IMG/VR virus record: IMGVR_UViG_2579778866_000006
DNA length: 35,265 nt
Origin: a virus
Taxonomy: Duplodnaviria; Heunggongvirae; Uroviricota; Caudoviricetes
Reading direction: 5' to 3' (one strand)
Shown: one piece after another, positions 4,050 through 35,265 of the stretch
Numbering within the stretch: position 1 is the stretch's first letter
Layout of the letters: every line of letters begins with the position of its first letter
Notes under the pieces: model-generated
Told to the model about the DNA's origin: nothing
Databases searched by the model: none
The model's input: only the letters and a program-made list of their open reading frames with translations
Position numbers and translations under genes: made by a program

Positions 4050-4415
4050 ATGAAAGAGACGAAAAACATCGATACCGAAAACACGGTAGTTACTGACACT
4101 GTGAAAGAAACCAGTGAGCGTGGCGTAAAACTTACCCAACCAATTGAGCGAGGCGGCGAAAAAATCACGTATGTGGAGATCACCGGGGCTATTGAGCAGG
4201 CTGGATCTCTGCGAGATTTGTCGCTGTCTGATGTGCTGAATCTGAAAGCGGAATCCATGTTTACGCTGCTGTCACGCGTGACATCACCGCGACTGGATGA
4301 AGTGACGATCAAAAAAATGGCATCCCGTGACTTTATTCAGTTATGTGTGGTTGCCGTAAATTTTTTGAGCGGTGCGGACTCTGGCGGGAAGAACGAACAG
4401 GCGACGGAAGCCTGA
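4050..4415 (+). CDS. E: Tail assembly chaperone E (zero-frame product)
   Basis: Small ORF between tube and tape-measure genes, as in P2; contains the slippery heptamer near its 3' end. Confidence 0.8.
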   Translation: MKETKNIDTENTVVTDTVKETSERGVKLTQPIERGGEKITYVEITGAIEQAGSLRDLSLSDVLNLKAESMFTLLSRVTSPRLDEVTIKKMASRDFIQLCVVAVNFLSGADSGGKNEQATEA

Positions 4416-4579
4416 TCACGGTTGTGTGCTTTGAGCACATAGAAGACTTTGTGGCGGATATTGCCGCCATTTTTAACTGGTCGCCCGCCGAAATCTTCAT
4501 GATGACGCCCGGCGAAGTGGTTAGCTGGCGTGAGCGGGCGGCACTTCGCAGCGGGAATGCAGACAATGAAGACTCTTGA
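4050..4579 (+). CDS. E: Tail assembly chaperone E+E' produced by programmed -1 frameshift at T TTT TTG (about 4361-4367)
   Basis: Slippery TTTTTTG inside E; the -1 frame stays open (FFERCGLWREERTG...SWRERAALRSGNADNEDS) to 4579 and overlaps the tape-measure start, the conserved P2 E/E' arrangement. Confidence 0.75.
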
Positions 4580-7373
4580 TATCCGGGTCGCTTTCAGCGC
4601 CGTTGACAGGCTGACCCGGCCTGCCGAAAACGCCCGCCGCCTGATGGGGCAGTTTGGTGACTCCATCCAGCGAACGCAGGGGGCGATCAAAAATCTCGAG
4701 CGTCAGGCGCGATCATTTGAGCGCGCCCGCGACGCTGTCAGTAAAGCGGATGCGGGTATCGTGAAAGCACGACGCCAGCTTAACGCCCTTAATCAGTTAC
4801 AACGCACGGGTACAGTGCTCAGCGAAAAACAACAAAAGCTGATGCAGCAGTTAAGCACCCGGCTTGAACGCCTGAATGAATCGCGCACACGGGAAATTCA
4901 GAAAATGCGGGAGCTTGGCGGAGAGCTGAAACGCCACGGCATTTCCCTGACAGGCAGCGATAACACCATCCAGCAGGCCATCAGACGCACCGAACAGTAC
5001 AACAACCAGCTTGAACGCGAACGGCAGGCGCTTGCGCGTGTAACGCGGGCGCGTGAGCGGTATTCGCGCGCGCAGGAAACAGCGGGAAAACTGAAAACAG
5101 GTGGTGCGCTGGCAATTGGTGCGGCAGCGGCTGGCGGCTATGCTGCCGGACGTTTTTTGCAGCCCGCGATCGGGTTCGGGAAAGAGATGTCCCGCGTTCA
5201 GGCACTGACGCGAATCGACCAGAACAGCCCGCAGTTTAAGGCGCTGCGTGAGCAGGCGTTAAAACTTGGCTCTGAAACACAGTTTACTGCGAGTGATGCC
5301 GCCAGTGGGCAGAGCTTTCTGGCAATGGCTGGTTTTACTCCGCAGGCCATTCAGGCCGCATTGCCCGGTGTTCTTAATATGGCGCTGGCAGGTGGCGTCG
5401 AACTCGGCGAGACGGCTGATATAGGCTCCAATATCCTCACACAGTTCAACCTGACAGCCGATCAAATGGACCGGGTTGGCGATACGCTGACAGCGGCATT
5501 CACCCGGACCAATACTGATTTACGCGCGCTGGGCGAAACCATGAAGTATACCGGTCCGGTTGCCGCAAAACTTGGTATCAGTCTTGAAGAAGCGGCAGCC
5601 ATGGCCGGGATGCTTGCCAATAATGGTCTTCGCGGAAGCGATGCTGGTACGGCCATGCGCGCAAGTCTGTCCCGCCTTGCATCACCGCCAAAAGCTGCGG
5701 CTGATGCGCTGAAAGAGCTGGGAGTGTCAGTTGCTGACGCCAGAGGCAAAATGCGCCCGATGGAGGATGTGCTGGTTGATCTCTATAAGGCGACACAAAA
5801 ATACGGACAGGTGGACCAGGTTTCCTTCTTCAAGGACATCGCCGGAGAAGAGGCGTTCGTTGGTTTGCAGACGCTTGTTGCGGCGGCCGGTTCAGGAGAG
5901 CTGCAAAAACTGACCAGAGAATTGCAGGAGGCAAGGGGAGAGGCCGATCGCGTCGCAAAAGTAATGGCCGATAATCTTGATGGGGACCTGAAAAATCTCG
6001 ACAGCGCATGGGAAGGTCTTCGTATTCGCATCAGTGATCTGGTTGACGGTCCGCTGCGTTCTGTCACGCAGTGGCTCACGCGGGTGCTTGAAAAAATCAC
6101 CTCGCTGGCGCAGGCCCATCCGGTGCTGACGCGCCAGCTACTGATAGCAGGCGGTGCGTTGCTGGCAATGACTGCAACGATTGGCTCGTTGTCGCTGGTT
6201 ATTGGGGTGCTTTACGGGAAGCTGGCCACGCTGCGTCTTGGTTTTGACATTCTTACCCGGTCAATGAATGTCGTCAGGGTGTTGCCTGCGCTGTGGGGAA
6301 TGGTGACGGGTTCCGTTTCTTTACTGGGAGGCGCTATCGGGGCGCTGTTCAGTCCGGTTGGTCTTATCGTGGCTGCGCTTGCCGGAGCTGCCGTTCTTAT
6401 CTGGAAATACTGGGATCCCATCAGGGCATTTTTTGCCGGGGTGTTCAGCGGGATCATGGAAAGGCTGACCCCGTTGCGCGAAACCTTTGAACGGTTTGGT
6501 CCTGTTTTTGACGCAATCGGAAGCGGGATCAGCCAGGTGTTTAACTGGTTTAAATCGCTGCTGTCACCGATGGAGTCCAGCAAGGAAACGCTGGATAAAT
6601 GTACCAGTGCTGGCGAGATATTCGGTAACGTTCTTGGCGGTGCGTTACAGCTTGTTCTGACACCTGCCAAAATGCTACTGGATACGCTGGCGTGGATACT
6701 TGAAAAACTTGGCGTCCTTCCGGATGAAGCGGAAAGGGCGCGCAAGAAAATCGAAGACGCACAGCGTGCGGCCATTCTTCAGGACAAGGTTGCCTTGCTT
6801 CAGGGGGACCTTGCGAAAATCAATCCACCGAAGCCTGTGGAAAATGGCAATGGCACCGGAGGTGATAAACCCAAAGACAACAAACCGCTCACAGACAGCA
6901 ATACCGGGACGCTACGCAGACTCAGCAAAATTGCTGATAACACAGGTAAGCTGGTTGATGAGACGAAAAAACGCATTGGCCCCGGCGATATTGTCTTTAA
7001 GAACCTGCCCCGCGCACTTGCTGTTCGTGGGGAGTGGCAGGAGCGGAAGATTGCGCAGGTCAGTAAGCCTGCCCCCGCAATTAATATCACACCCGTAGTC
7101 CCGGCTCCGCTGCCTCCGGCGCTGGTCCCTGTTGTTGCGGCCAGCTCCCGCCCGGTGGCGGAGGCCATACGATCGCCAGTGGCATCAGTTCCTGCAGCTT
7201 CCCGTAATCGGGAGCCTGCTGTCTCCGGATTTGGCGGTGAAATTCATGTTCATCTGCATAACGTTGTTACGCAGAATCCCCGCGAACTGGCGAAACTGGT
7301 CGGTGAAATGGTCAGGGCAGAGATGGAACGGCGCGCCCGTGCCGGACGTGGCAGTTTTTACGATAAAGATTGA
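4530..7373 (+). CDS. T: Tail tape measure protein T
   Basis: 947-aa ORF with coiled-coil N-terminal region, Gly/Ala-rich hydrophobic central segments and a proline-rich C-terminal tract; positioned between E/E' and U. Confidence 0.9.
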   Translation: MSGRHFAAGMQTMKTLDIRVAFSAVDRLTRPAENARRLMGQFGDSIQRTQGAIKNLERQARSFERARDAVSKADAGIVKARRQLNALNQLQRTGTVLSEKQQKLMQQLSTRLERLNESRTREIQKMRELGGELKRHGISLTGSDNTIQQAIRRTEQYNNQLERERQALARVTRARERYSRAQETAGKLKTGGALAIGAAAAGGYAAGRFLQPAIGFGKEMSRVQALTRIDQNSPQFKALREQALKLGSETQFTASDAASGQSFLAMAGFTPQAIQAALPGVLNMALAGGVELGETADIGSNILTQFNLTADQMDRVGDTLTAAFTRTNTDLRALGETMKYTGPVAAKLGISLEEAAAMAGMLANNGLRGSDAGTAMRASLSRLASPPKAAADALKELGVSVADARGKMRPMEDVLVDLYKATQKYGQVDQVSFFKDIAGEEAFVGLQTLVAAAGSGELQKLTRELQEARGEADRVAKVMADNLDGDLKNLDSAWEGLRIRISDLVDGPLRSVTQWLTRVLEKITSLAQAHPVLTRQLLIAGGALLAMTATIGSLSLVIGVLYGKLATLRLGFDILTRSMNVVRVLPALWGMVTGSVSLLGGAIGALFSPVGLIVAALAGAAVLIWKYWDPIRAFFAGVFSGIMERLTPLRETFERFGPVFDAIGSGISQVFNWFKSLLSPMESSKETLDKCTSAGEIFGNVLGGALQLVLTPAKMLLDTLAWILEKLGVLPDEAERARKKIEDAQRAAILQDKVALLQGDLAKINPPKPVENGNGTGGDKPKDNKPLTDSNTGTLRRLSKIADNTGKLVDETKKRIGPGDIVFKNLPRALAVRGEWQERKIAQVSKPAPAINITPVVPAPLPPALVPVVAASSRPVAEAIRSPVASVPAASRNREPAVSGFGGEIHVHLHNVVTQNPRELAKLVGEMVRAEMERRARAGRGSFYDKD

Positions 7374-25715: not shown

Positions 25716-26675
25716 TTACTCCTTGTCCATTGCGTACAGCCCATTAACCAGAGCAAACTGTGGCACCCCGTCCGCGATGAAAGTCGCATTAACTCCGCAG
25801 GCTTCGCGGATAGCGGGTGCCACAATCTCCGTCCCGCCACCGACAACCATCACCCGCCCGTAACCCGAAAAACCCGCCAGCGCGCGGATCACGCGTTGTT
25901 TCAGTGTTTCTTCCTTTTCACGAATAACCGCCATCAGGCTGGCGTAATGCGCGTCATTGTGGATGTGCTGGCGCAGCCAGGCTTCATCATGGCGATGTTC
26001 GATAATGGTATTGGCGATGTGGTGACTGGTGCGCATACCGTTAGTGGCCATCACCGACAGTACGGCATCGGCCATCAGAGAAACGCCTACGTGTGGATCG
26101 CAAAACACCTGGCTGATACCTGCCAGTTGCCCCTGAACCTTTGCCACATCCAGCGTGGTTCCGCCCAAATCCACAATCAGCAGGGATTCAAACGGACTCA
26201 TGTCAGCCAGTGCTTTAAAGCCAGCCGGAATAGATTCAGGCATAACCCGCACGTTACGGATAGTGAATGCCTCGCCGTTCTGGTACTCCACCGGGCGCAT
26301 AACGTTCGCTTTTTTGCGGTTGATGTTGGCCATGTCCGGCTGTGCGTTTGTGTCGAAATACTCGCTCAGTGGCAGGGTGACAACCACATCCACCTCCTGT
26401 GGCGTGATGCCTGATTTGACCAGCGCATGATGAATGGCAATGACATTCACATCGCTGTACTGGTATTGCGTGTCGGTCGTCTGGACAAAGCGATCGCTGA
26501 CCGGATCAAAACCATAGCGCACGCCATCAAGCATGTAGTTCGCGGGCTGCGTGCCACCGAACGGCGCAGACCATTCCGACTTGAAGCTGTTCGGGCTGAT
26601 GGCGTTGCGGCGTTCGCCGTTCTCAGTCCATGCCAGCTTGATGTTGGTGGAGCCGTCGTCGATACAAATTTTCAT
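25716..26675 (-). CDS. parM: ParM/StbA-family actin-like ATPase (plasmid segregation protein homologue)
   Basis: 319 aa; strong resemblance along the whole length to plasmid R1 ParM (IDDGSTNIKL, SPNSFK, QYSDVNV.A.HHAL, ANF/ANV, VMPESIPAG, LLI.DLGGTTLD, FSGY..VMV.GGG, LVNG.Y). Confidence 0.85.
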   Translation of the reverse strand: MKICIDDGSTNIKLAWTENGERRNAISPNSFKSEWSAPFGGTQPANYMLDGVRYGFDPVSDRFVQTTDTQYQYSDVNVIAIHHALVKSGITPQEVDVVVTLPLSEYFDTNAQPDMANINRKKANVMRPVEYQNGEAFTIRNVRVMPESIPAGFKALADMSPFESLLIVDLGGTTLDVAKVQGQLAGISQVFCDPHVGVSLMADAVLSVMATNGMRTSHHIANTIIEHRHDEAWLRQHIHNDAHYASLMAVIREKEETLKQRVIRALAGFSGYGRVMVVGGGTEIVAPAIREACGVNATFIADGVPQFALVNGLYAMDKE

Positions 26676-26751: not shown

Positions 26752-29592
26752 TCATATATCGCTGCGCGTTTTTTGCTCATTTACGGGATTCGTGAGTCCC
26801 GTTTCTGTCTGTTTTTTGTTTCCACTGGTCAGGCCACCCCGCAGCAGGTCTGCTTTGCGGCTGGCGCGTTCAGTGGTTTCACTGATTCTCTGTGTGTGCT
26901 CTGCGTCGCGGATGGCGCGCAGCATGTCAGAAAGCACGGTAACGGGTGTTTTCATGGTGTTCTGGTCCTGCTGAAGTGTGGATGCCAGGCGTGCGGCGGC
27001 TTCAGGGTCTGATGCCCCCAGCTGTGCCAGATAGCTGGCGACCGGGTTATGGCGGATCTCCGTGCTGCTTACGCCATGATTACGGCTCAGGCGCTGCCAG
27101 AGCTGCGTGATTCGGCTGTCCGGGCGGGTATCCGGTTTGCGTACAATTTCAAATCCCTGCGGTGCAATGATGCTGCCGTCAACGTACAGACTGCCGCCCC
27201 GTAACAGGTGCTGCATCTGTTGTTCACCGATATGCAGGCCGAGAGATTCAGCAGACTCCCGCCATTCTTTAGCGAGTAATTCGTGGTTATCAGGCAAAGG
27301 CCGCTGCTGTTTACGGCTCTGTGTCCAGCTCTGCATTTCATCACTGCTGTTTTTTGCCTGTTTGTCACGAAGCGAACGCATCAGCGCCCGGCGTTCGTGC
27401 CGTTTCAGTGAGCGCATCCATTCGTTCACTTCAACGCCGTCAGGGAGCTGCGGCCACGGTACTGGCCGTTCTTCCGGCTGTTCTGTCCCGTTGTTGTCCG
27501 TTTCCTGTACACGGGGACAGTTATTGCCACGAGTCCAAGGGGCGGCAGGGCCGCCCTGAAGGTCAAAACCATTTTCGCGGGCGCTGTCTTCCGCTTCCGG
27601 TTTACGTCTTACCAGCTTCCAGTTATCCGGGTGCGTGCACACGCGGGAAGACTCCCCGATGAGCGGCGACCAGATCCCGTAAATCTGTACACTCTGCTCG
27701 CCGTAATCGTTCAGCTCATCTGCGAGGTCGTAGGCGGTGCGAATCAGGTAGTCTTTGCGTGGAACAAGTACGCCACCCTGTTTCTCAATGTAGGTGGCAA
27801 AACATCCGGCATCAGCGGCAGCGAGTACCGCGTCCATTGCGTCATCCTTCAGCCGTTGCGGGCCTTCCGGGTTGCGTGCCATCTGGCTGGCAAGGCGGCG
27901 CAGTTCACGCCACACCTGACGGGAGGGGATACCAAAGAACTGGAACTGGCGGACCCGGTGAAGGCGCGCCCAGCCGATGGCGCGTTCCACGCTCTCGGCC
28001 ATTGATTTTCCGGTTTCGTGGTCAACGCGTGGCTTGCCCGTTTTCGGGTCGATGCCATCCACGGCGCGGCTGTCCAGGTTCTTTCCGATGTAGGTGGCGA
28101 TGTAGCTGGTTGGTGTGCCTTTTGAGCCGTCGACATACTCCACCTTAAAGCGCGGAGTAATATCATTGCCCAGCTCGTGGCGGTCTTCCTGAATGGCAAT
28201 ATCGCGGGTGATGGCCACGATGCTGTCGATTTCTTCCGGATGAGCAAAGACCATCATGTGCCAGTGCACGGTGCCGTCATGGTGAGGCTCCACCGTGCGG
28301 ATGCCATACCAGCGCAGGCCGTCGCGGTTCAGTTTTTTGCGGACCGCCGCAAAAAACGTGTTAACCAGGTAATCGCTGGAGTCGCGCATGGTGGCCCCGT
28401 TCCATTTGGGGTTCGGATGACCGTTCTCCGTTGTTGCGTGGTATTTTGACGGGCAGGTGACAGTCAGAAACACCGCTCTGTCGCCACGGGCTTCGGCCAG
28501 AAGTTCCAGTCCCTTCATGGTGGCCATCATTTCTGCCTTACGGTGGACCGGGTTACTTACTCCCGCGTAATACACCGTCTCGAGATCAATCGTGAACCCG
28601 TCTTCGTTTTCCAGCATGAAACTTTTCAGGAAATCGCGTGTTTTCTCGCGCTGTGCGCGAAACTCGCTTAACGCGTCCTGGCTCAGATAGGGCGATGTTT
28701 TTCTGGAAACCAGACAGGCGGCGCGGAGTTGTTCTTCCCGCCACTCGCAACGTAACAGCCACAGTTTGCGTTTCCACCATTCTGCACAGGTCAGGCGGAG
28801 GATTGCGCCCGGCAGCAGTTCCGTGTCCGGTTCGTTCTTGCGGTCTTTGTCTGTTGTCAGTGCGTCATAATGTGGAGGCATGGCGTGCAGGTGTAACGCC
28901 ATGCGGGCCAGCATCTGATACGCCTTCAGTGCCACCTCCATGGTCAGCTCACCATCGGTCGCGCCAAAGCCATCGCAGAGTTTTTCGAAGGTGCTGCTGA
29001 ACATCGCCGCCGTCATGGTGGCCAGCGTCTGTATCTGGTGCTTGTTGAGCTGCGGCAGGTAAAGCAAATCATCCAGGCGTTCGCGTCCGGCAAGGGAGCG
29101 ATAACCCGGTGTCAGCCAGCGGTGGTCGGTGCGGTCCAGGCGTTCGAATATTTTGCGCAGGGTTCCGCGCGCGTAGCGTTCAGCCTGCCAGCTCTTTTTG
29201 CCTTTCTGGCGATCGGCTTCCTGTTTTTTGCGCAGGAAAGAGAGGTGGCGGCTCAGAGGTTCACGCAGATAAACGGGAAGCACCTTCAGTGTGGCAAAAG
29301 CACGGGCTACCGGGTCTTGTTCTGTTGCCCGGCGCTTACTGATGATGCTCTGAGCCAGCTTTTCACGCTGTCCGGCTTCCTCAAGGGATGCCATGAGTTT
29401 TTTACCCATGGCGGATTGTGCGAAAAAGGCTTCCTCCTTCGCTTCCTGTTCTTCCCGGGCCTTTTTGTCCGCCTCAAGGTAGTAACGGATGGCGCGTTGC
29501 AGGTCGGTTTCAGTTTCCTGCCTGCGCTCCGTAAATCTGGCCGGATCAATGGCTGGTCGTGGTTCATTCCAGCTCCATGCAAACTCACTCAT
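26752..29592 (-). CDS. A: Replication initiation endonuclease A (rolling-circle initiator)
   Basis: Large ORF at the end of the early operon with P2/186 A-family features (HWHMMVF histidine motif, YIATYIGKNLD); start placed at MSEFAWSW, whose ATG overlaps the upstream stop (ATGA). Longer than P2 A. Confidence 0.85.
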   Translation of the reverse strand: MSEFAWSWNEPRPAIDPARFTERRQETETDLQRAIRYYLEADKKAREEQEAKEEAFFAQSAMGKKLMASLEEAGQREKLAQSIISKRRATEQDPVARAFATLKVLPVYLREPLSRHLSFLRKKQEADRQKGKKSWQAERYARGTLRKIFERLDRTDHRWLTPGYRSLAGRERLDDLLYLPQLNKHQIQTLATMTAAMFSSTFEKLCDGFGATDGELTMEVALKAYQMLARMALHLHAMPPHYDALTTDKDRKNEPDTELLPGAILRLTCAEWWKRKLWLLRCEWREEQLRAACLVSRKTSPYLSQDALSEFRAQREKTRDFLKSFMLENEDGFTIDLETVYYAGVSNPVHRKAEMMATMKGLELLAEARGDRAVFLTVTCPSKYHATTENGHPNPKWNGATMRDSSDYLVNTFFAAVRKKLNRDGLRWYGIRTVEPHHDGTVHWHMMVFAHPEEIDSIVAITRDIAIQEDRHELGNDITPRFKVEYVDGSKGTPTSYIATYIGKNLDSRAVDGIDPKTGKPRVDHETGKSMAESVERAIGWARLHRVRQFQFFGIPSRQVWRELRRLASQMARNPEGPQRLKDDAMDAVLAAADAGCFATYIEKQGGVLVPRKDYLIRTAYDLADELNDYGEQSVQIYGIWSPLIGESSRVCTHPDNWKLVRRKPEAEDSARENGFDLQGGPAAPWTRGNNCPRVQETDNNGTEQPEERPVPWPQLPDGVEVNEWMRSLKRHERRALMRSLRDKQAKNSSDEMQSWTQSRKQQRPLPDNHELLAKEWRESAESLGLHIGEQQMQHLLRGGSLYVDGSIIAPQGFEIVRKPDTRPDSRITQLWQRLSRNHGVSSTEIRHNPVASYLAQLGASDPEAAARLASTLQQDQNTMKTPVTVLSDMLRAIRDAEHTQRISETTERASRKADLLRGGLTSGNKKQTETGLTNPVNEQKTRSDI

Positions 29593-29978
29593 GGCTGGTA
29601 TCCCGTCACGCGCTGCCACTCCTGCGAGAAGATGGCGGAAAGGCGGTCAAATTCAGCGGTGTATTCACTCAGCGAGGCACACCCGCCAGCAGTGCGATGC
29701 GCCAGTATTGCCGCAAATACGGAGGCCGGGGAGTCGTAATACGCCAGTAGTGATTCGCCGTGTGGTGTCAGGCAGTGCAACGCCAGCCCGTGTGGTGTGA
29801 AGTCCACGCGGTAGCAGTCGTCTACTGTGAAATAAAGGGTGTCTGCATTCTCCGGTTTTGTGGTGCGTGCTCTGTTGTCACGACCACGGATGTAGAGATC
29901 AAATAATCCCTGAAGAACGGGAGCCAGACGGGTGTCCTGTGTGCGCACCCATCTTGTGAAGTCATGAGCGTCAATCAT
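29589..29978 (-). CDS. Hypothetical early protein (129 aa)
   Basis: ORF translationally coupled to A (ATGA overlap). Confidence 0.6.
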   Translation of the reverse strand: MIDAHDFTRWVRTQDTRLAPVLQGLFDLYIRGRDNRARTTKPENADTLYFTVDDCYRVDFTPHGLALHCLTPHGESLLAYYDSPASVFAAILAHRTAGGCASLSEYTAEFDRLSAIFSQEWQRVTGYQP

Positions 29979-30050
29979 GCTGCAATTCTCTTTACTACAG
30001 ATGTGCGAAGGCCTCCCGCCGCAAGGTGCAGGAAAGGCCCGGAACAGGAA

Positions 30051-30281
30051 TTAATGGAGTTTGTTTTGCTGCTGGAAGAGCTGCTGAAGCTCGCGCAGAT
30101 CATCCGCCAGATAGCTGAAAACAGCGGATGAGTAGAGGTTTGAAAGTTCGCAGCTACGCTCATGCAGCATATTGATGTGCATGATTTTAGCGACGCGGAA
30201 TGCGCGGGAAAGTCTGCGGTTGATTTCAGTCTGGATGTGACGACGCTCCGCGATAGCGCGGTGCTGTTTGCGGTCTGCCAT
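30051..30281 (-). CDS. Hypothetical early protein (76 aa)
   Basis: ATG preceded by AAAGAGG; basic helical protein. Confidence 0.55.
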   Translation of the reverse strand: MADRKQHRAIAERRHIQTEINRRLSRAFRVAKIMHINMLHERSCELSNLYSSAVFSYLADDLRELQQLFQQQNKLH

Positions 30282-30458
30282 GGTGTGGCCTCTTTGGTTG
30301 TAAGTTTTGAAAACTCACCATCCAGAGCTGCGAAACAGTGGGTGGCGAGACGTACGAGGTTCGCAGTACCGGCAACCAAAGAACCCGGCCCGACCGAAGT
30401 CGGCCCCGTACGCCCCGCCATAATTCGTGTGCGAAAAAGACGTGGCAATACAGTACGC

Positions 30459-30483
30459 ACAAAAAAACCGCTGGCGCGGTTGT
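30459..30483 (-). terminator. Intrinsic terminator-like hairpin inside the early operon
   Basis: On the minus strand: stem aaccgc / gcggtt (loop gcca) followed by TTTTTTT. Confidence 0.5.
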
Positions 30484-30601
30484 GCGCTTTGGTTGTCAGC
30501 AGGCTGCGAAACCCGGCACCCGTTTTATGAGGTGCAGCGGAAATGTAACCTGACTGATTGCGGCATGGCAAGCGGTTTTTTTGTGTGTACATGATGCTCA
30601 T

Positions 30602-31153
30602 TCAGTTTGGAAGCAGTTCGTATAACAGGGCGTCGGCAGCGGTTCGGCGGTTGTAAAGCCACCACGCTGTGCTGTATGCCATCTGTATCCCTGTGATTTT
30701 GTGTATATGTCTGCTTATTTCCCTGAATGGCATGCCGTGCCCATCACGCAATTCAGTTACCAGATGAACAATATGATCGTCGTATTTAGCAGCATGATGT
30801 ATGCCTCCACACTTCATTGCGCTGTAACCACGATCGCGGAGTATTTTTTGTATGGTGCATTTGCTACATTTCATTTCCCGCGCCATATCCCTCTTGCTTT
30901 TTCGGTGGCGGTTGCTGATTATTTCTGCTATTGCCTTTTCATCCAGCCGCTGGCGTTTCCGGCCAATCAGTCCTCGCTTGCGCAAGGTGATAAGGCGCTG
31001 CCCCGTTGCATGAAATGAGCGATTAAGTCTGGATGTCATTTCCCTGATGCTGTGTTTCGGGTACATGCTTATCAGCAACGCGTCTTCCTGTTTCGTCCAT
31101 TGTTTAACGTGTCTTGGTGCTTGACCGGGGATGCCCATAGGTTTGAGTTTCAC
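30602..31153 (-). CDS. Hypothetical protein (183 aa), possibly DNA-binding
   Basis: Basic protein with HTH-like segments; function not recognised. Confidence 0.55.
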   Translation of the reverse strand: MKLKPMGIPGQAPRHVKQWTKQEDALLISMYPKHSIREMTSRLNRSFHATGQRLITLRKRGLIGRKRQRLDEKAIAEIISNRHRKSKRDMAREMKCSKCTIQKILRDRGYSAMKCGGIHHAAKYDDHIVHLVTELRDGHGMPFREISRHIHKITGIQMAYSTAWWLYNRRTAADALLYELLPN

Positions 31154-31167
31154 TGTGATTTGCTCCC

Positions 31168-31467
31168 TTACTGGTTCAGAAAAAAATCAAAAACCTTGTC
31201 AATGCGTTGCAGCAGCTCTTTCTGTATTGCTTCCGGCGTTTCCGGTTCGCCTGGCGCCTCCAACGTCGCGCAGAAATCCTCGATTTCATGACGGAGCGTC
31301 AGGCGAATGGCGAGAGGTGTGGTTTTGGCGTGCTCCAGCTGATCCAGCAGTGCCAGCACAGCAGACGGCGAGAGCATTGCGCGAAATGCCAGTAATTTTT
31401 GAGGAGTTGCCATTCGTTGCAGGGCAAATGCCAGTTCGCGTAGCTTCTGGTGGTTGGTGGTGCTCAT
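31168..31467 (-). CDS. Hypothetical protein (99 aa)
   Basis: ORF in a co-directional, tightly packed array; start overlaps the upstream stop. Confidence 0.55.
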   Translation of the reverse strand: MSTTNHQKLRELAFALQRMATPQKLLAFRAMLSPSAVLALLDQLEHAKTTPLAIRLTLRHEIEDFCATLEAPGEPETPEAIQKELLQRIDKVFDFFLNQ

Positions 31468-31730
31468 GTTCTGGCTTCCTTCAGTAGCTGGTTAAACATG
31501 TGAGTAAGTGGATTGCTACACCCGAACGGCATCGGGTTTACGTGGTAAGAAGCCTGGCCTCCAGTTTTGCGAGCGCGACCACCTGTGCTGCGGTTTGTTC
31601 TGATGACTAAGCCGCCGCGCCAAAGTCGGCGTAACTCAGTATTAATAGCTGTGGTTGGGGTGTTCAGTGCTGCGGCGATCTCTCCGCCGCTACACCCCGG
31701 ATGAGTAGCGATGTAGTCCAGAATGGTCAT
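31464..31730 (-). CDS. Putative winged-helix DNA-binding protein (88 aa)
   Basis: wHTH-like N-terminus (ILDYIATHPGCSGGEIAAALNTPTTAINTELRRLWRGGLV); overlapping start/stop with neighbours. Confidence 0.55.
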   Translation of the reverse strand: MTILDYIATHPGCSGGEIAAALNTPTTAINTELRRLWRGGLVIRTNRSTGGRARKTGGQASYHVNPMPFGCSNPLTHMFNQLLKEART

Positions 31731-31930
31731 CTGCGTGGCTCCTGTACCTGTCGGATAAGATTCACCCGCGCCACGTTGGTGGCGCAGAAGTAAGTGCCGT
31801 CAGTGAGGTAGATGTGGTGTGCATCCTTTTCCGAACGATGTTTGTCGATAGTGGTAATCAGGCGTTCGTCGACCTCGTATTCGCGCCCTCTGGAGGTAAA
31901 GCGAACGACGGGAAAATGCTTAATTGCCAT
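31727..31930 (-). CDS. Hypothetical protein (67 aa)
   Basis: ORF in the coupled array. Confidence 0.5.
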   Translation of the reverse strand: MAIKHFPVVRFTSRGREYEVDERLITTIDKHRSEKDAHHIYLTDGTYFCATNVARVNLIRQVQEPRR

Positions 31931-31953
31931 TGCGCCCCCTTTGTCCAGTAACC

Positions 31954-32370
31954 CTATGCGTTAAATGCGGCACGTTGCGCGTCATCAATGAATACAGCTT
32001 GAGAGCGTTCTATCAGGCGGAGATTTGTCAGAAGCTCTGACTCTTTTGTGTGGTAAGGCGTTATCAGGTATTTGCCGTGCAGTTCGGCAATAATGGTGTA
32101 TTGCAGCATCATTGCTGAACCAAGAATATAAATGCAGCGTCCAATGCTGGACGGATTCATGGCTGCAACTGTTGACTGTGTTTTAAGAGTGTCGATTTCT
32201 TTGCTCTGTTCCTCAATAATTTTGGCTGCGTCAGCGGTGATTTTTGCAATGGTCAGTGCGTGAAGTGCTGCCATATGTTGGCTACGCTTCACGGCATCTT
32301 TAGCTATTTCAGCTTCCGCTTCTGATATTTTTTTTAATGTGTCGATAATGCCTTCTTCTTTTGCATTCAT
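31954..32370 (-). CDS. Hypothetical protein (138 aa)
   Basis: ORF in the early operon; helical N-terminus. Confidence 0.55.
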   Translation of the reverse strand: MNAKEEGIIDTLKKISEAEAEIAKDAVKRSQHMAALHALTIAKITADAAKIIEEQSKEIDTLKTQSTVAAMNPSSIGRCIYILGSAMMLQYTIIAELHGKYLITPYHTKESELLTNLRLIERSQAVFIDDAQRAAFNA

Positions 32371-32462
32371 TTTATATCTCCGTTATTTACGTGTGCGAAT
32401 ACCTCCGCGAATGCGGATAGTTTTCAGGTTTTCGGGTTTAATCTGGTGTTTTGTTTAAGCTG

Positions 32463-32576
32463 TTATTCGTCAGTGAAAAAGCGTTCAATCTTTTTTACTG
32501 AATGAATAATTCGCATAATCCCAATGGCGCAGGCCACCGAAATAATCAGAGCAAGCCATGAGATAAATATACTCAT
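32463..32576 (-). CDS. Small hydrophobic peptide (37 aa), single predicted transmembrane helix, translationally coupled (ATGA) to the upstream ORF
   Basis: Not in the ORF track (below its length cutoff). My translation of the minus strand: MSIFISWLALIISVACAIGIMRIIHSVKKIERFFTDE; start ATG overlaps the TGA of 32573..32815. Confidence 0.45.
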   Translation of the reverse strand: MSIFISWLALIISVACAIGIMRIIHSVKKIERFFTDE

Positions 32577-32815
32577 GCGATATTCCCCAGCTTATACGGT
32601 TCAATGTGTTCCCCGCATTCTGCGGCACAGATCAGCTCGGAAAGTTCGTTAAGTGCATCCAGATCATCAGCGTAAAAAGCCACGTCATACAGACTCCGGA
32701 TTGCCCTGGTCAATGAGTCGCGGGCTGCACGTTCAGCATGAGCGCCTGATGCACTTAAGCGAAAATAAAAACGCTCAAGTGCTTTGTTAATGAGAGTTTT
32801 ATATTCTTTGCCCAT
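32573..32815 (-). CDS. Hypothetical protein (80 aa)
   Basis: ORF in the early operon. Confidence 0.5.
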   Translation of the reverse strand: MGKEYKTLINKALERFYFRLSASGAHAERAARDSLTRAIRSLYDVAFYADDLDALNELSELICAAECGEHIEPYKLGNIA

Positions 32816-32826
32816 CGCAACGCCCT

Positions 32827-33117
32827 TTAATCTGCTTTCTGAATTTCAGTTTCTGAATCCATACAAATAATTTCGATATAGGGTTCATCGCCATTAACCT
32901 GGCGTGCCTTTTCAGCTTCGCTAATAATTTCTCGTACGGTCTGGTACGGAAGTTCCACAAGCAGTCGCGTGCCGTTCAGATAAACGTAAGTGGCTTCGTC
33001 GGCTCCGTTTTTACCCGCCGGAGTCACTCCATCAATAGCGGATGCACGTAATAACAGTTCACCGCGAAAATCAATAAAACGGATAAATACACCTTGTGCA
33101 TGCTCTTTGGTCATAAC
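32827..33117 (-). CDS. Hypothetical protein (about 96 aa from an internal Met)
   Basis: Track ORF 32827..33174 overlaps the upstream gene; a likely start is MTKEHAQGV. Confidence 0.45.
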   Translation of the reverse strand, partial: VMTKEHAQGVFIRFIDFRGELLLRASAIDGVTPAGKNGADEATYVYLNGTRLLVELPYQTVREIISEAEKARQVNGDEPYIEIICMDSETEIQKAD

Positions 33118-33124
33118 GCACCTG

Positions 33125-33466
33125 TTATAAATCAGTCTGTTTAATAAAACTTTGCCCGCGAAGCAGACGATCAACTGTGCGTAATGCTTCGTATAATGTG
33201 AAATCCTGCCCGAACTGATTGTCGCCGCAGCTCAATGCAAAAATGCGGTTTCCGGTAAACGGATTGCGTGGGCATTTGTGGACCACAATTCCAGCTTTCT
33301 CAATCAGCCAGGCATGCTCGCCGATTTGTTTTACTGGGTAGCCATCCGGCGTTGCGTGTGTATCACTCAGGCTGTAGCGGATGTTGCTGCGTGATGCACT
33401 GGTAGCAAAACGGTTAGCGTGGCGTTCAGCACCATTACGAAAGCGTGAATTACGTTGCTGTTTCAT
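33125..33466 (-). CDS. Hypothetical early protein (113 aa), first gene after cox
   Basis: ORF directly downstream of the cox-like gene. Confidence 0.55.
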   Translation of the reverse strand: MKQQRNSRFRNGAERHANRFATSASRSNIRYSLSDTHATPDGYPVKQIGEHAWLIEKAGIVVHKCPRNPFTGNRIFALSCGDNQFGQDFTLYEALRTVDRLLRGQSFIKQTDL

Positions 33467-33484
33467 ATCAAAACCCCCTGCATC

Positions 33485-33811
33485 TCATGCAGCAAAATTA
33501 AGAAAGCCTAATCCCAAATCTTCCGCCAGCTTCTTGGCTTTCTTAAGCCAGTGGTTGCGCCAATCTTTACGCTCAGGAGGAAGCTGTTTCGTTGCGTCAT
33601 AGACCATTTCGAGCCACTCATTCCAAAGGATGAGAAGACGGCGCGAACTCCCTTCCTCGCCTAAAACCTCGCGCTCAGTAGTTAGAGGGATGAGTCGACG
33701 CTCTACCAACTTTCTTACGGCTGATTCGGTCTTACCTGTGCGGCGGGAAAACTCATCGACGGTGATGGGGTCTGGGATCTTAAACAATGCCCTCAATAGT
33801 TCTTCATTCAT
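33485..33811 (-). CDS. cox: Cox-like excisionase / early regulator
   Basis: Divergent from the C repressor; from the internal Met (MNEELLRALF...) the protein shows a P2 Cox-like HTH (ESAVRKLVERRLIPL) and tryptophan-rich C-terminal part. Confidence 0.6.
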   Translation of the reverse strand: MNEELLRALFKIPDPITVDEFSRRTGKTESAVRKLVERRLIPLTTEREVLGEEGSSRRLLILWNEWLEMVYDATKQLPPERKDWRNHWLKKAKKLAEDLGLGFLNFAA

Positions 33812-33880
33812 GTGATAATCTCCCTGTTTGGGGTATTTCTTGCGACGGATGCCCCAAATCAAACTCATTTGTATAAACAT

Positions 33881-33891
33881 TAATACAGACG
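33881..33891. promoter_or_regulatory. Immunity switch region between divergent cox and C (expected Pe/Pc promoters and operators)
   Basis: Position between divergently transcribed repressor and cox-like gene, as in the P2 genetic switch; sites not resolved. Confidence 0.4.
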
Positions 33892-34209
33892 TTGGAGAAT
33901 TGCAACATGCGTATGACTATTGGAGAGCGCATAAAAATCATGCGTGAAAGCGAGAGACTTACTAGCCTCCCGGATACAGCAAAAATGCTTGGTTTAAACC
34001 GTGATGCTCTGTGGAGATATGAAAGCGGTAAAACCATCCCTAATGCTGAAGTAATTGAGCAAATACTAAACAACCCCAGATTTGAGAAATATGCGTTGTG
34101 GTTTATGACTGGAAAAATTGCGCCTGAATCCGGGCAGATAGCTCCGGCTCTCGCACACTATGGGCAAGAGCCAACGGACTTACCCCCATCCGAAAAGAAA
34201 ATTGGTTAA
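33892..34209 (+). CDS. C: Immunity repressor C
   Basis: Strong match to P2 repressor C, including the near-identical C-terminal block FMTGKIAPESGQIAPALAHYGQ (P2: FMTNQIAPESGQIAPALAHFGQ). Confidence 0.9.
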   Translation: MENCNMRMTIGERIKIMRESERLTSLPDTAKMLGLNRDALWRYESGKTIPNAEVIEQILNNPRFEKYALWFMTGKIAPESGQIAPALAHYGQEPTDLPPSEKKIG

Positions 34210-34242
34210 CCCTTTATTATTCTTACGTTTTACAAACTGGAA

Positions 34243-35265
34243 ATGTCTTTCCTCGTTTCACCGGAGGGCTTGCCAATGGCAATTAAAGCGCTCGATGGTG
34301 GACGGTATAAAGTGGATGTTAGACCGCGTGGCCGAAGTGGACGTCGGATTCAGCGGATTTTTAAGAAAAAGGCAGATGCAGTGGCCTTTGAGCGTTATGT
34401 TCTCAGCCACATGCACGATAAGGAATGGCTTGAAAAGCCAACAGAGCAACGTCATCTCTCAGATCTGCTTCCGTTATGGTGGGAATTGGGTGGACGCAAT
34501 AAGCCATATGCTAACGGCGTTCTAACCAGGTTGAAAAAAATCATCAAAGAAATGAATGATCCAAGGGTTAGCCAGATTAATGCTCGTTTCATGGCCGCTT
34601 ATCGAAGCTCCCGTTTATCCTTGGGAGTAAAAGAGTCTACTGTTCGGCGTGATGAGTCGGATCTCGGAGGAATGTTTACACTCCTGACAAATGCTGGGGA
34701 ATTTCACGGAGAAAATCCGCTCCGCGCCCTCCCCTCTTTGAAACGAAAATCACCCGAAATGACGTATCTCACCACGGAAGAAATCGCCAAATTACTGGAT
34801 GCAGTAAGCGGTGATGCCCGGCGGATTACGCTACTTTGTCTCAGTACTGGTGCGAGATGGGGAGAGGCGAAAAATCTGCGCGCGGAACACATCATCAATA
34901 ACCGCGTGACGTTTAACAAAACTAAAAACGGAAAAGTTCGAATTATTCCTGTCTCTGATGAAGTTGTTAGCGAGATCAAAACAAAGAAATCCGGCCTTTT
35001 GTTTGACGTCAATTATGAGGAATATCGCAAGGTGCTCCGCAGTGTTAAGCCTGACCTACCAAAAGGACAGGCTGTACATGTTCTACGCCATACCTTTGCA
35101 GCTCACTTTATGATTAATGGAGGAAATATACTTACGCTCCAGCGAATTATGGGGCACGCCACGATCCAGCAAACTATGACCTATGCACACCTCGCTCCTG
35201 ATTTCCTCCAGGATGCAATTTCACTTAATCCGTTAAAAGGAGGCATCCACATTTCATCCACATAA
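34243..35265 (+). CDS. int: Tyrosine integrase (P2 Int family)
   Basis: 340 aa; catalytic region with conserved R...HxxRHT...Y arrangement (LRHTFAAHFMINGGNILTLQRIMGHATIQQTMTYAHL); downstream of C as in P2. Confidence 0.9.
   Translation: MSFLVSPEGLPMAIKALDGGRYKVDVRPRGRSGRRIQRIFKKKADAVAFERYVLSHMHDKEWLEKPTEQRHLSDLLPLWWELGGRNKPYANGVLTRLKKIIKEMNDPRVSQINARFMAAYRSSRLSLGVKESTVRRDESDLGGMFTLLTNAGEFHGENPLRALPSLKRKSPEMTYLTTEEIAKLLDAVSGDARRITLLCLSTGARWGEAKNLRAEHIINNRVTFNKTKNGKVRIIPVSDEVVSEIKTKKSGLLFDVNYEEYRKVLRSVKPDLPKGQAVHVLRHTFAAHFMINGGNILTLQRIMGHATIQQTMTYAHLAPDFLQDAISLNPLKGGIHISST

Follow-up and report, generated by a model that had tools for sequence, protein, structure and literature searches.

The window analyzed here is a stretch of 35,265 nucleotides (nt) from a virus of the class Caudoviricetes (IMG/VR record IMGVR_UViG_2579778866_000006). 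This work deals with its early operon, namely with positions 30602 to 33466 and with the adjoining DNA that leads to the gene of the replication initiator A. Nine open reading frames (ORFs), all on the minus strand, fill this range and encode, in their 5' to 3' order, proteins of 113, 95, 80, 37, 138, 67, 88, 99, and 183 amino acids (aa). The coding density is about 95%, and a Shine-Dalgarno-like sequence precedes each of the nine ORFs. Matches to PHROG families were obtained for eight of them (E values of 1e-38 to 1e-79), and Pfam assigned two to domains of unknown function (DUF4761 and DUF4754) and another one to the MarR-type winged helices. The window proteins were also mapped onto 87 related loci, comprising 80 IMG/VR loci anchored on the DUF4754 protein, for which 236 IMG/VR relatives were found, 2 genome loci, and 5 annotated records. 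Among these relatives, the third codon position accounts for 0.43 to 0.83 of the variable sites, except for the 138-aa ORF (0.37). Because of the ribosome-binding sites, the PHROG and Pfam matches, and this third-position excess of variation, the nine ORFs are real genes and not chance ORFs. The initial annotation had described a tightly coupled array of small, unrecognized ORFs, many of them overlapping by 4 nt. The array itself is borne out, but 4-nt ATGA overlaps occur at only three of the eight junctions, the others being gaps of 10 to 23 nt (four cases) or 92 nt (one case). The term "unrecognized" holds only in part, as the counterparts in P88-like phages and Escherichia coli genomes are annotated, namely, as DUF4761, DUF4754, MarR, ead/Ea22-like, and DNA-binding proteins.

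Clear information on the origin of this operon comes from its closest relatives. Megablast searches placed the region among the P88-like phages (genus Xuanwuvirus), namely, PhiR44_2, P88, vB_EcoM-569R5, P884B11, and the Citrobacter phage phiSM, with nucleotide identities of 86 to 93% over matching parts that correspond to 24 to 63% of the query, and with the same gene order. Of 5426 complete E. coli genomes, 1560 (about 29%) contain operon-like DNA. In E. coli H22, the operon is the same, down to the cox allele, but lacks the gene for the 183-aa protein. The conserved order encountered in the relatives is DUF4761, phrog_3800, DUF4754, the 37-aa peptide, the 67-aa protein, MarR, the Ead-like protein, an IsrK/C4 RNA module, a derepression gene, A, and ParM. 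Judged by these matches, the stretch is the middle of the standard early lytic operon of a P88-like E. coli prophage (Xuanwuvirus, Peduoviridae, P2 family). The initial annotation had considered it an expanded P2-type operon. However, it is an ordinary operon of a very common prophage lineage and not a P2 operon swollen by cargo, because its ORFs are conserved genes of another Peduoviridae lineage. The best joint explanation, to which we assign a probability of roughly 0.8, is that of a P88-like early operon composed of seven backbone genes and two cargo genes, followed by a predicted second immunity module of the IsrK/C4 type.

The division into backbone and cargo emerges from the presence of each gene in the 87 loci. 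The DUF4761, phrog_3800, and DUF4754 genes as well as those for the 37-aa peptide and the 67-aa protein were each found in 86 or 87 loci, whereas the MarR and Ead-like genes were each present in 73. Since these genes are near-universal and their order is fixed in the relatives, these seven ORFs are assigned to the backbone. The remaining two, encoding the 138-aa and 183-aa proteins, are cargo located in two discrete, fixed insertion slots, as evidenced by the presence table and the discrete classes of gap length at these sites. The suggestion that the operon carries cargo is thus correct for these two genes, whose slots are empty in 46 and 40 of the 87 loci, respectively, but not for the seven others.

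Measured from the cox stop codon (33485) to the start of A (ATG at 29592 or GTG at 29619), the interval amounts to 3.9 kb. The value of 6.7 kb proposed initially includes the A gene, up to its end at 26752, and the P2 interval, given as roughly 2.5 kb, was found to be 1753 nt with six genes. Due to this miscount, the initial size comparison with P2 is unsupported; the interval is about twice that of P2 and close to that of phage 186 (3340 nt, nine genes). Several features are common to the operons of the window, of P2 (cox-orf78-B-orf80..83-A), and of 186 (apl-cII-fil-dhr-...-orf84-A), namely, small genes that are coupled in a row, an A-type rolling-circle initiator as the last gene, and probably also a repressor that is divergent from a first gene of the Cox/Apl type, although this first gene is only Cox-like in the window. 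The stop codon of the last small gene overlaps the A start in the window, and a similar coupling of orf84 and A is noted in the annotation of 186. However, no homology was detectable between the small genes, and the window has no B, cII, fil, or dhr. A tblastn search of all early proteins of the window against the early regions of P2 and 186 gave nothing below an E value of 0.25 except for A, which shares 32 to 35% identity with the A proteins of both phages, in agreement with the view that the small ORFs are distinct from P2/186 early genes. Furthermore, no C4 or IsrK RNA was found in the corresponding region of P2 or 186. The features of the locus are listed in Table 1.

Table 1. Predicted features of the early operon and its flanks, with positions in the 35,265-nt window.
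Feature	Positions	Strand	Evidence and remarks
C-type immunity repressor (105 aa), in divergent orientation to the early operon	33892..34209	+	HTH_31, HTH_3; phrog_147, E 9e-32
Cox-like first gene, probable start at ATG 33811 (108 aa; listed ORF to 33880)	33485..33811	-	phrog_11919, E 1e-69 over aa 24-131
DUF4761 protein, 113 aa	33125..33466	-	PF15958, 232 bits; 86/87 relatives; third-position share 0.53
phrog_3800 protein, 95 aa (ATG) or 115 aa from the TTG at 33174	32827..33114	-	phrog_3800, E 1e-61 over aa 21-115; 86/87 relatives
DUF4754 protein, 80 aa	32573..32815	-	PF15946, 181.7 bits; anchor for related loci
Single-pass membrane peptide, 37 aa	32463..32576	-	4-nt overlap with DUF4754; 87/87 relatives, 84-97% identity
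138-aa protein, slot 1 cargo	31954..32370	-	phrog_9338, E 2.5e-79
67-aa protein	31727..31930	-	phrog_3459, E 1e-45; 87/87 relatives
MarR-type winged-helix protein, 88 aa	31464..31730	-	PF12802 (MarR_2), 31.6 bits, cut-off 27; phrog_1687, E 2e-31
99-aa protein, ead/Ea22-like by annotation of relatives	31168..31467	-	phrog_4144, E 3e-59; 73/87 relatives
183-aa triple Myb/GcrA-N-like helix-turn-helix protein, slot 2 cargo	30602..31153	-	AlphaFold2 model and fold matches
Promoter-like site TTGCCA-18-TACATT	30571..30542	-	promoter scan
IsrK-like small RNA with a1/b1 sites	30535..30461	-	Rfam RF01394, 65.9 bits, gathering score 50
Intrinsic terminator of IsrK, followed by a T run	30481..30466	-	terminator scan
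Second promoter-like site TTGCCA-17-AATTAT	30448..30420	-	promoter scan
C4 antisense RNA, b' loop CUUUGGUUG, a' linker CUGCGAA	30425..30338	-	Rfam RF01695, 84.5 bits, gathering score 45
Target sites a2 (UUCGCAG) and b2 (CAACCAAAGAG)	30282..30337	-	pairing with C4
76-aa P4 epsilon homologue (Derepression family)	30051..30281	-	PF25738, 29.1 bits, cut-off 27
129-aa protein, stop overlaps the A start by 4 nt	29589..29978	-	phrog_3237, E 6e-59; 23/87 relatives
A-type rolling-circle initiator, last gene of the operon, 946 aa (ATG at 29592)	26752..29592	-	PF05840, 435.7 bits

The 320 nt at positions 30282 to 30601, which adjoin the nine genes, are not an ORF-free gap but are identified by covariance models and base pairing as an IsrK-like RNA together with a C4 antisense RNA. 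This non-coding module had been overlooked in the initial account of the interval between cox and A. The minimum free energy fold of C4 corresponds to the secondary structure of the family. For the upstream element with the a1/b1 sites, the narrower c4-a1b1 model gave only 20.5 bits versus 46.7. The gene that follows, 56 nt downstream of C4, encodes the 76-aa homologue of P4 epsilon and is referred to below as the derepression gene. The C4 loop CUUUGGUUG is complementary to CAACCAAAG, which is located at the Shine-Dalgarno sequence of the derepression gene (site b2), and to an identical site in IsrK (b1). Similarly, the C4 linker CUGCGAA is complementary to UUCGCAG, which occurs upstream of the derepression gene (a2) and in IsrK (a1). 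Site b2 covers the Shine-Dalgarno sequence AAGAGG, 6 to 11 nt before the ATG. C4 was found to be conserved in 67 to 70 of the 87 relatives, and 70 of them, the same loci in both cases, possess the IsrK element and the derepression gene.

The pairing between these sites is maintained by covariation, which was computed over 46 distinct sequences. For a'/b' with a2/b2, 97.1% of 828 cells are standard pairs, and 10 of the 18 pairs have changed on both sides. For a1/b1 with a'/b', all of the 736 cells pair (100%), and 11 of 16 pairs have changed on both sides. In contrast, slid controls gave 41 to 53% pairing for the a2/b2 test and 29 to 54% over both tests. The calculated duplex energies average -24.6 kcal/mol for cognate and -12.1 kcal/mol for noncognate combinations. 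P1 and P7 are two phages that differ in c4 specificity, whereas the lineage of the window possesses at least 5 a' and 14 b' alleles, which occur in 18 combinations among the 46 variants. The C4 type is almost independent of the C/cox type (adjusted mutual information [AMI] of 0.13). Such a diversity of types, independent of C/cox, would be expected of a second, RNA-based immunity determinant under diversifying selection. By its sequence features, the module is a member of the known class of IsrK/C4 RNA immunity systems (P1 immI/P4 CI class), with an unusually rich natural set of specificities. Of the different parts of the operon, the RNA module matters more. The early operon of this very common E. 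coli prophage lineage is documented as consisting of genes with, at most, a predicted function, and the two singled out as cargo are the first candidates for tests of exclusion or anti-defense activity. The module, in turn, provides a natural series of matched antisense/target specificities, at least 18 in number, within a single conserved scaffold. This series is a ready-made system to study how the specificity of RNA-based immunity evolves, and the RNA types could explain how P2-family prophages residing in the same host evade or exploit one another.

By analogy with P1 immI, P4 CI, and Gifsy-1 IsrK, the arrangement suggests a mechanism. Minus-strand transcription would start at the C/cox switch at around 33.8 to 33.9 kb and would comprise cox, the nine small genes, the RNA module, the epsilon-like gene, the 129-aa gene, and A. 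In the lysogen, C4 transcribed from its own promoters would pair with a2/b2 over the ribosome-binding site of the derepression gene, which would block its translation and probably lower the expression of A through polarity. The decoy sites a1/b1 of IsrK would titrate C4. The module would thus form a second immunity determinant that is RNA based and independent of the C repressor. The expression and processing of C4 in the lysogen, and the repression of the downstream gene, are predictions made from the promoter-like sites.

Similar modules have been described in other mobile elements. IsrK and C4 are described as structural homologues of seqA and CI, and the short form of IsrK was shown to relieve a read-through transcript that is inactive in translation (PMC4825925, PMC3632133). 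In satellite phage P4 (seqA-CI RNA-seqC-epsilon-orf151-alpha), the replication gene is likewise preceded by an isrK-like element, by an RNA of the C4 family, and by the gene of a derepression protein, and P4 gave the same Rfam matches in the same order upstream of epsilon. However, the module of the window is located within a helper-type phage with its own C repressor, and the replication gene is A, not alpha. In addition, C4 is separated from the controlled gene by 56 nt as compared with about 245 nt in P4, and the next gene is unrelated to orf151. Another example is that of P1/P7 immI (c4-icd-ant) and Gifsy-1 (isrK-orf45/STnc1160-anrP), which share with the window an antisense RNA with a'/b' sites, targets a1/b1 upstream and a2/b2 at the downstream ribosome-binding site, a controlled gene that counteracts repression, and an IsrK element with its own terminator and read-through (PMC4825925). 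In contrast to these systems, the protein encoded in the window is epsilon-like and is neither Ant nor AnrP, and an icd or orf45 leader ORF is absent.

Two other explanations of the locus have to be weighed against this reading. The initial annotation had regarded the whole array as accessory cargo that expands a P2-type operon and encodes functions in host take-over, superinfection exclusion, or anti-defense. We consider this quite improbable, given that seven of the nine ORFs show the near-universal presence and fixed order of a backbone and that the interval of 3.9 kb, instead of 6.7 kb, is close to the 3.3 kb of 186. This explanation is consistent with the lack of matches between any of the small ORFs and P2/186 early genes, with the real variability of two of the genes, and with the GC content, which at positions 32001 to 33500 (0.42 to 0.47) is lower than in the late structural genes (0.55 to 0.61). 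It is also compatible with the results of database searches, as an NCBIfam scan of all early proteins produced nothing meaningful and sequence searches against the PDB with the DUF4761, DUF4754, phrog_3800, 67-aa, Ead-like, and 129-aa proteins produced matches at chance level only. However, the PADLOC defense models, compared with the early-operon proteins and with those of the alternative slots, gave no meaningful match either; weak matches below significance were restricted to cox and MarR (E values of 0.004 to 0.008), and the cargo genes had none. Nothing thus points to a role in defense for the early-operon genes. Literature searches found no paper that mentions DUF4761 or DUF4754 and none on the P88 early operon.

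The other explanation concerns positions 29975 to 30601 of the minus strand, which would encode a 208-aa Ash family protein instead of the RNAs. This ORF matches the Pfam family Phage_ASH (PF10554; 27.2 bits with a cut-off of 26) as well as several PHROG families of the "regulator" type, PhiR44_2 has it annotated as a coding sequence and some genomes as "ash family protein," and its frame is open in 43 of the 46 variants. Nevertheless, the variable columns outside the a/b sites are spread evenly over the three codon positions (30/30/29), unlike the third-position excess of the real genes, and the variation is concentrated in the covarying base-pairing sites, which argues against a translated protein under coding selection. 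Moreover, the C-terminal half shares its DNA with the conserved 76-aa gene, which is read in another frame, and the NCBI Prokaryotic Genome Annotation Pipeline marks the ORF in PV468777 as a feature other than a coding sequence. The CI RNA region of P4 is likewise covered by an ORF, the historical "cI," and where this locus is annotated as "Ash family protein," the product is probably a translation of RNA genes in the same way. A protein instead of RNAs is therefore the least probable of the explanations considered here and very unlikely indeed.

Less clear is the role of the 76-aa protein, which shares 32% identity with P4 epsilon over 50 aa (BLASTP E value of 2e-8). P4 epsilon derepresses P2, and the 76-aa protein could be the phage's own antirepressor, in which case relief from C4 would result in the inactivation of the resident C repressor and the lineage would be inducible, unlike P2. 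Apart from the homology to epsilon, this is supported by the predicted C4-type RNA control, of which P1 ant and Gifsy-1 anrP are other examples, and we regard it as possible but somewhat doubtful. P88 has been recovered after mitomycin C treatment (PMC5285337), which is compatible with, but no proof of, an induction that involves an antirepressor. However, 17 of the 87 relatives lack the module altogether, the early region is devoid of a LexA box (none at 29.9 to 34.3 kb; over the whole window, 13 matches with at most one mismatch compare with 10.9 expected), and the derepression allele is only weakly linked to the C/cox type (AMI of 0.12), one allele cluster at 90% identity (single linkage) being associated with 15 of the 16 C/cox types. 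This lack of linkage would not be expected if the 76-aa protein specifically counteracted the C repressor of its own phage, and it makes the target of the protein uncertain. A further proposal, which is rather unlikely as a whole, is that the P88-like helper-type phages, present in about 29% of the complete E. coli genomes, carry a second immunity of the satellite P4 type with diversified types independent of C, and that the epsilon-like protein may act on other resident P2-family prophages or on satellites. If true, the module would be a weapon or a shield in the conflict between prophages and satellites, and not a simple switch for self-induction.

The reading of the locus as a P88-like early operon with two cargo genes and an IsrK/C4 second immunity module also has points that count against it. 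The allele distribution of the derepression gene just described is one of them. The promoter-like sites are no more common than in shuffled sequence (5 versus 5.1 expected), and the case for them rests on their placement and not on their number. The C4 and IsrK RNAs of this prophage are predicted from the sequence. As for the proteins, the functions of those of the backbone and the cargo are at most putative; the term regulator for the 183-aa protein derives from its fold, and the 138-aa protein has a C-terminal domain of moderate confidence (predicted local distance difference test [pLDDT] values of 55 to 75) and a gene with little third-position excess. The backbone frequencies are, finally, biased toward close relatives, as the anchoring was done at 76 to 100% DUF4754 identity; a scan of genome contigs with DUF4754 gave at least 2 loci, and the species spread is based on IMG/VR and the E. 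coli genomes.

Both cargo slots are filled in the window. Slot 1, between the genes for the 37-aa and 67-aa proteins, is empty (about 89 nt) in 46 of the 87 loci; 35 loci have a 136/138-aa gene there, 5 have a 105-aa gene, and a single locus has two genes. Slot 2 is delimited by the Ead-like gene and IsrK. It is empty (71 nt) in 40 loci, whereas the gene for the 183-aa helix-turn-helix (HTH) protein was found in 4, an SPFH pair in about 20, and other content in 2. This pair, which consists of an SPFH/Band-7 lipoprotein (274 to 276 aa) and a membrane protein of 67 to 70 aa, occupies slot 2 of P88 (positions 4177 to 5207 of locus L002) and of about 20 IMG/VR loci, and looks like candidate exclusion or membrane-associated cargo. 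In locus L049, slot 2 contains an ORF of 203 aa that looks spurious by its composition. The early operon of P88 differs from that of the window in its empty slot 1, in the SPFH pair in place of the rare 183-aa HTH gene, in the cox/C immunity type, and in the gene upstream of A.

The gene for the 138-aa protein occurs in 36 of the 87 loci and in 789 of the 5426 E. coli genomes, and its family comprises 86 clusters, restricted to Escherichia, E. albertii, and Citrobacter. The AlphaFold2 model (pLDDT of 76) features a confident helical hairpin (residues 3 to 64) and a less confident small beta domain, so the protein is predicted to consist of a coiled coil and a small beta domain. Foldseek retrieved only weak, generic matches to SH3/KOW/Tudor-like folds (E values of 0.03 or higher); as these matches are weak and the C-terminal domain is of low confidence, no function was drawn from the model. 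The N-terminal hairpin is variable and the C-terminal half conserved. Since its gene has almost no third-position excess, the protein may be evolving fast.

The 183-aa gene is much rarer, being present in 4 of the 87 loci and in 11 of the 5426 E. coli genomes, as compared with the 1560 that contain operon-like DNA; its family is composed of 29 clusters from Escherichia and Shigella only. Modeling with AlphaFold2, based on an alignment of 20 sequences, resulted in three HTH modules of three helices each and a terminal helix (pLDDT of 82.8), in line with the DNA-binding role proposed initially. The best matches among solved structures were the bipartite DNA-binding domains of Tc3 transposase (E value of 7e-3), Pax, CENP-B, and Mos1, and those in BFVD were uncharacterized phage proteins, the parts of phage endonucleases that bind DNA, and a Myb-like protein; multi-HTH proteins of phages were also among the fold matches. 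When 1.8 billion representatives were searched with a profile, 2249 relatives were identified, many of which are long proteins with 3 to 11 copies of the Myb/GcrA-N-like repeat. On the basis of its model, the 183-aa protein is predicted to be a DNA binder without catalytic domain that most likely acts as a regulator.

Several observations concern individual backbone genes. The 37-aa peptide has no Pfam or PHROG family match, and its counterpart in P88 is annotated as "membrane protein." The winged-helix protein, whose presence had been recognized correctly by the initial annotation, also matches HTH_24 (22.2 bits versus 21.9) and corresponds to the DNA-binding core only, without the MarR dimerization helices; two allele classes of its gene exist among the 73 relatives that have it. 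The family phrog_19053 (246 aa) matches the 67-aa protein with its positions 84 to 135 and the MarR-like protein with positions 162 to 243, and these two genes may represent a split version of one larger protein of other phages. The 99-aa protein scored 17.2 bits with Ead_Ea22 (PF13935; cut-off of 27) over 28 residues only, which falls short of membership in this family.

At the upstream flank, the C repressor has the same position as C in P88 and PhiR44_2. The cox-like gene scored below the cut-off of Phage_Cox (PF10743; 24.6 bits versus 27.5) and matched phrog_272 with an E value of 3e-4, but its position and orientation fit, and an identical 108-aa coding sequence is annotated in E. coli H22. 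The cox allele of the window was found in 10 of the 87 loci. In the C/cox region (positions 33467 to 34260 of the window; loci L001 to L087), 16 sequence clusters were observed among 84 relatives that have a near-identical DUF4754, which indicates that immunity types are swapped freely onto the same early operon. At the downstream end, P88 and others carry an unrelated 121-aa gene in place of the 129-aa gene. The A protein, with its 946 aa, is longer than those of P2 (761 aa) and 186 (694 aa), as deduced from the coordinates of the coding sequences, and its GPA domain covers only residues 194 to 518, leaving long N- and C-terminal extensions. Directly downstream of A, at positions 25716 to 26675 of the minus strand, is a gene for a ParM/StbA actin-like segregation protein (PF06406, PF21523), as in P88. 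For a P2-family phage that integrates, such a protein is an uncommon finding and a hint of a plasmid-like stage.

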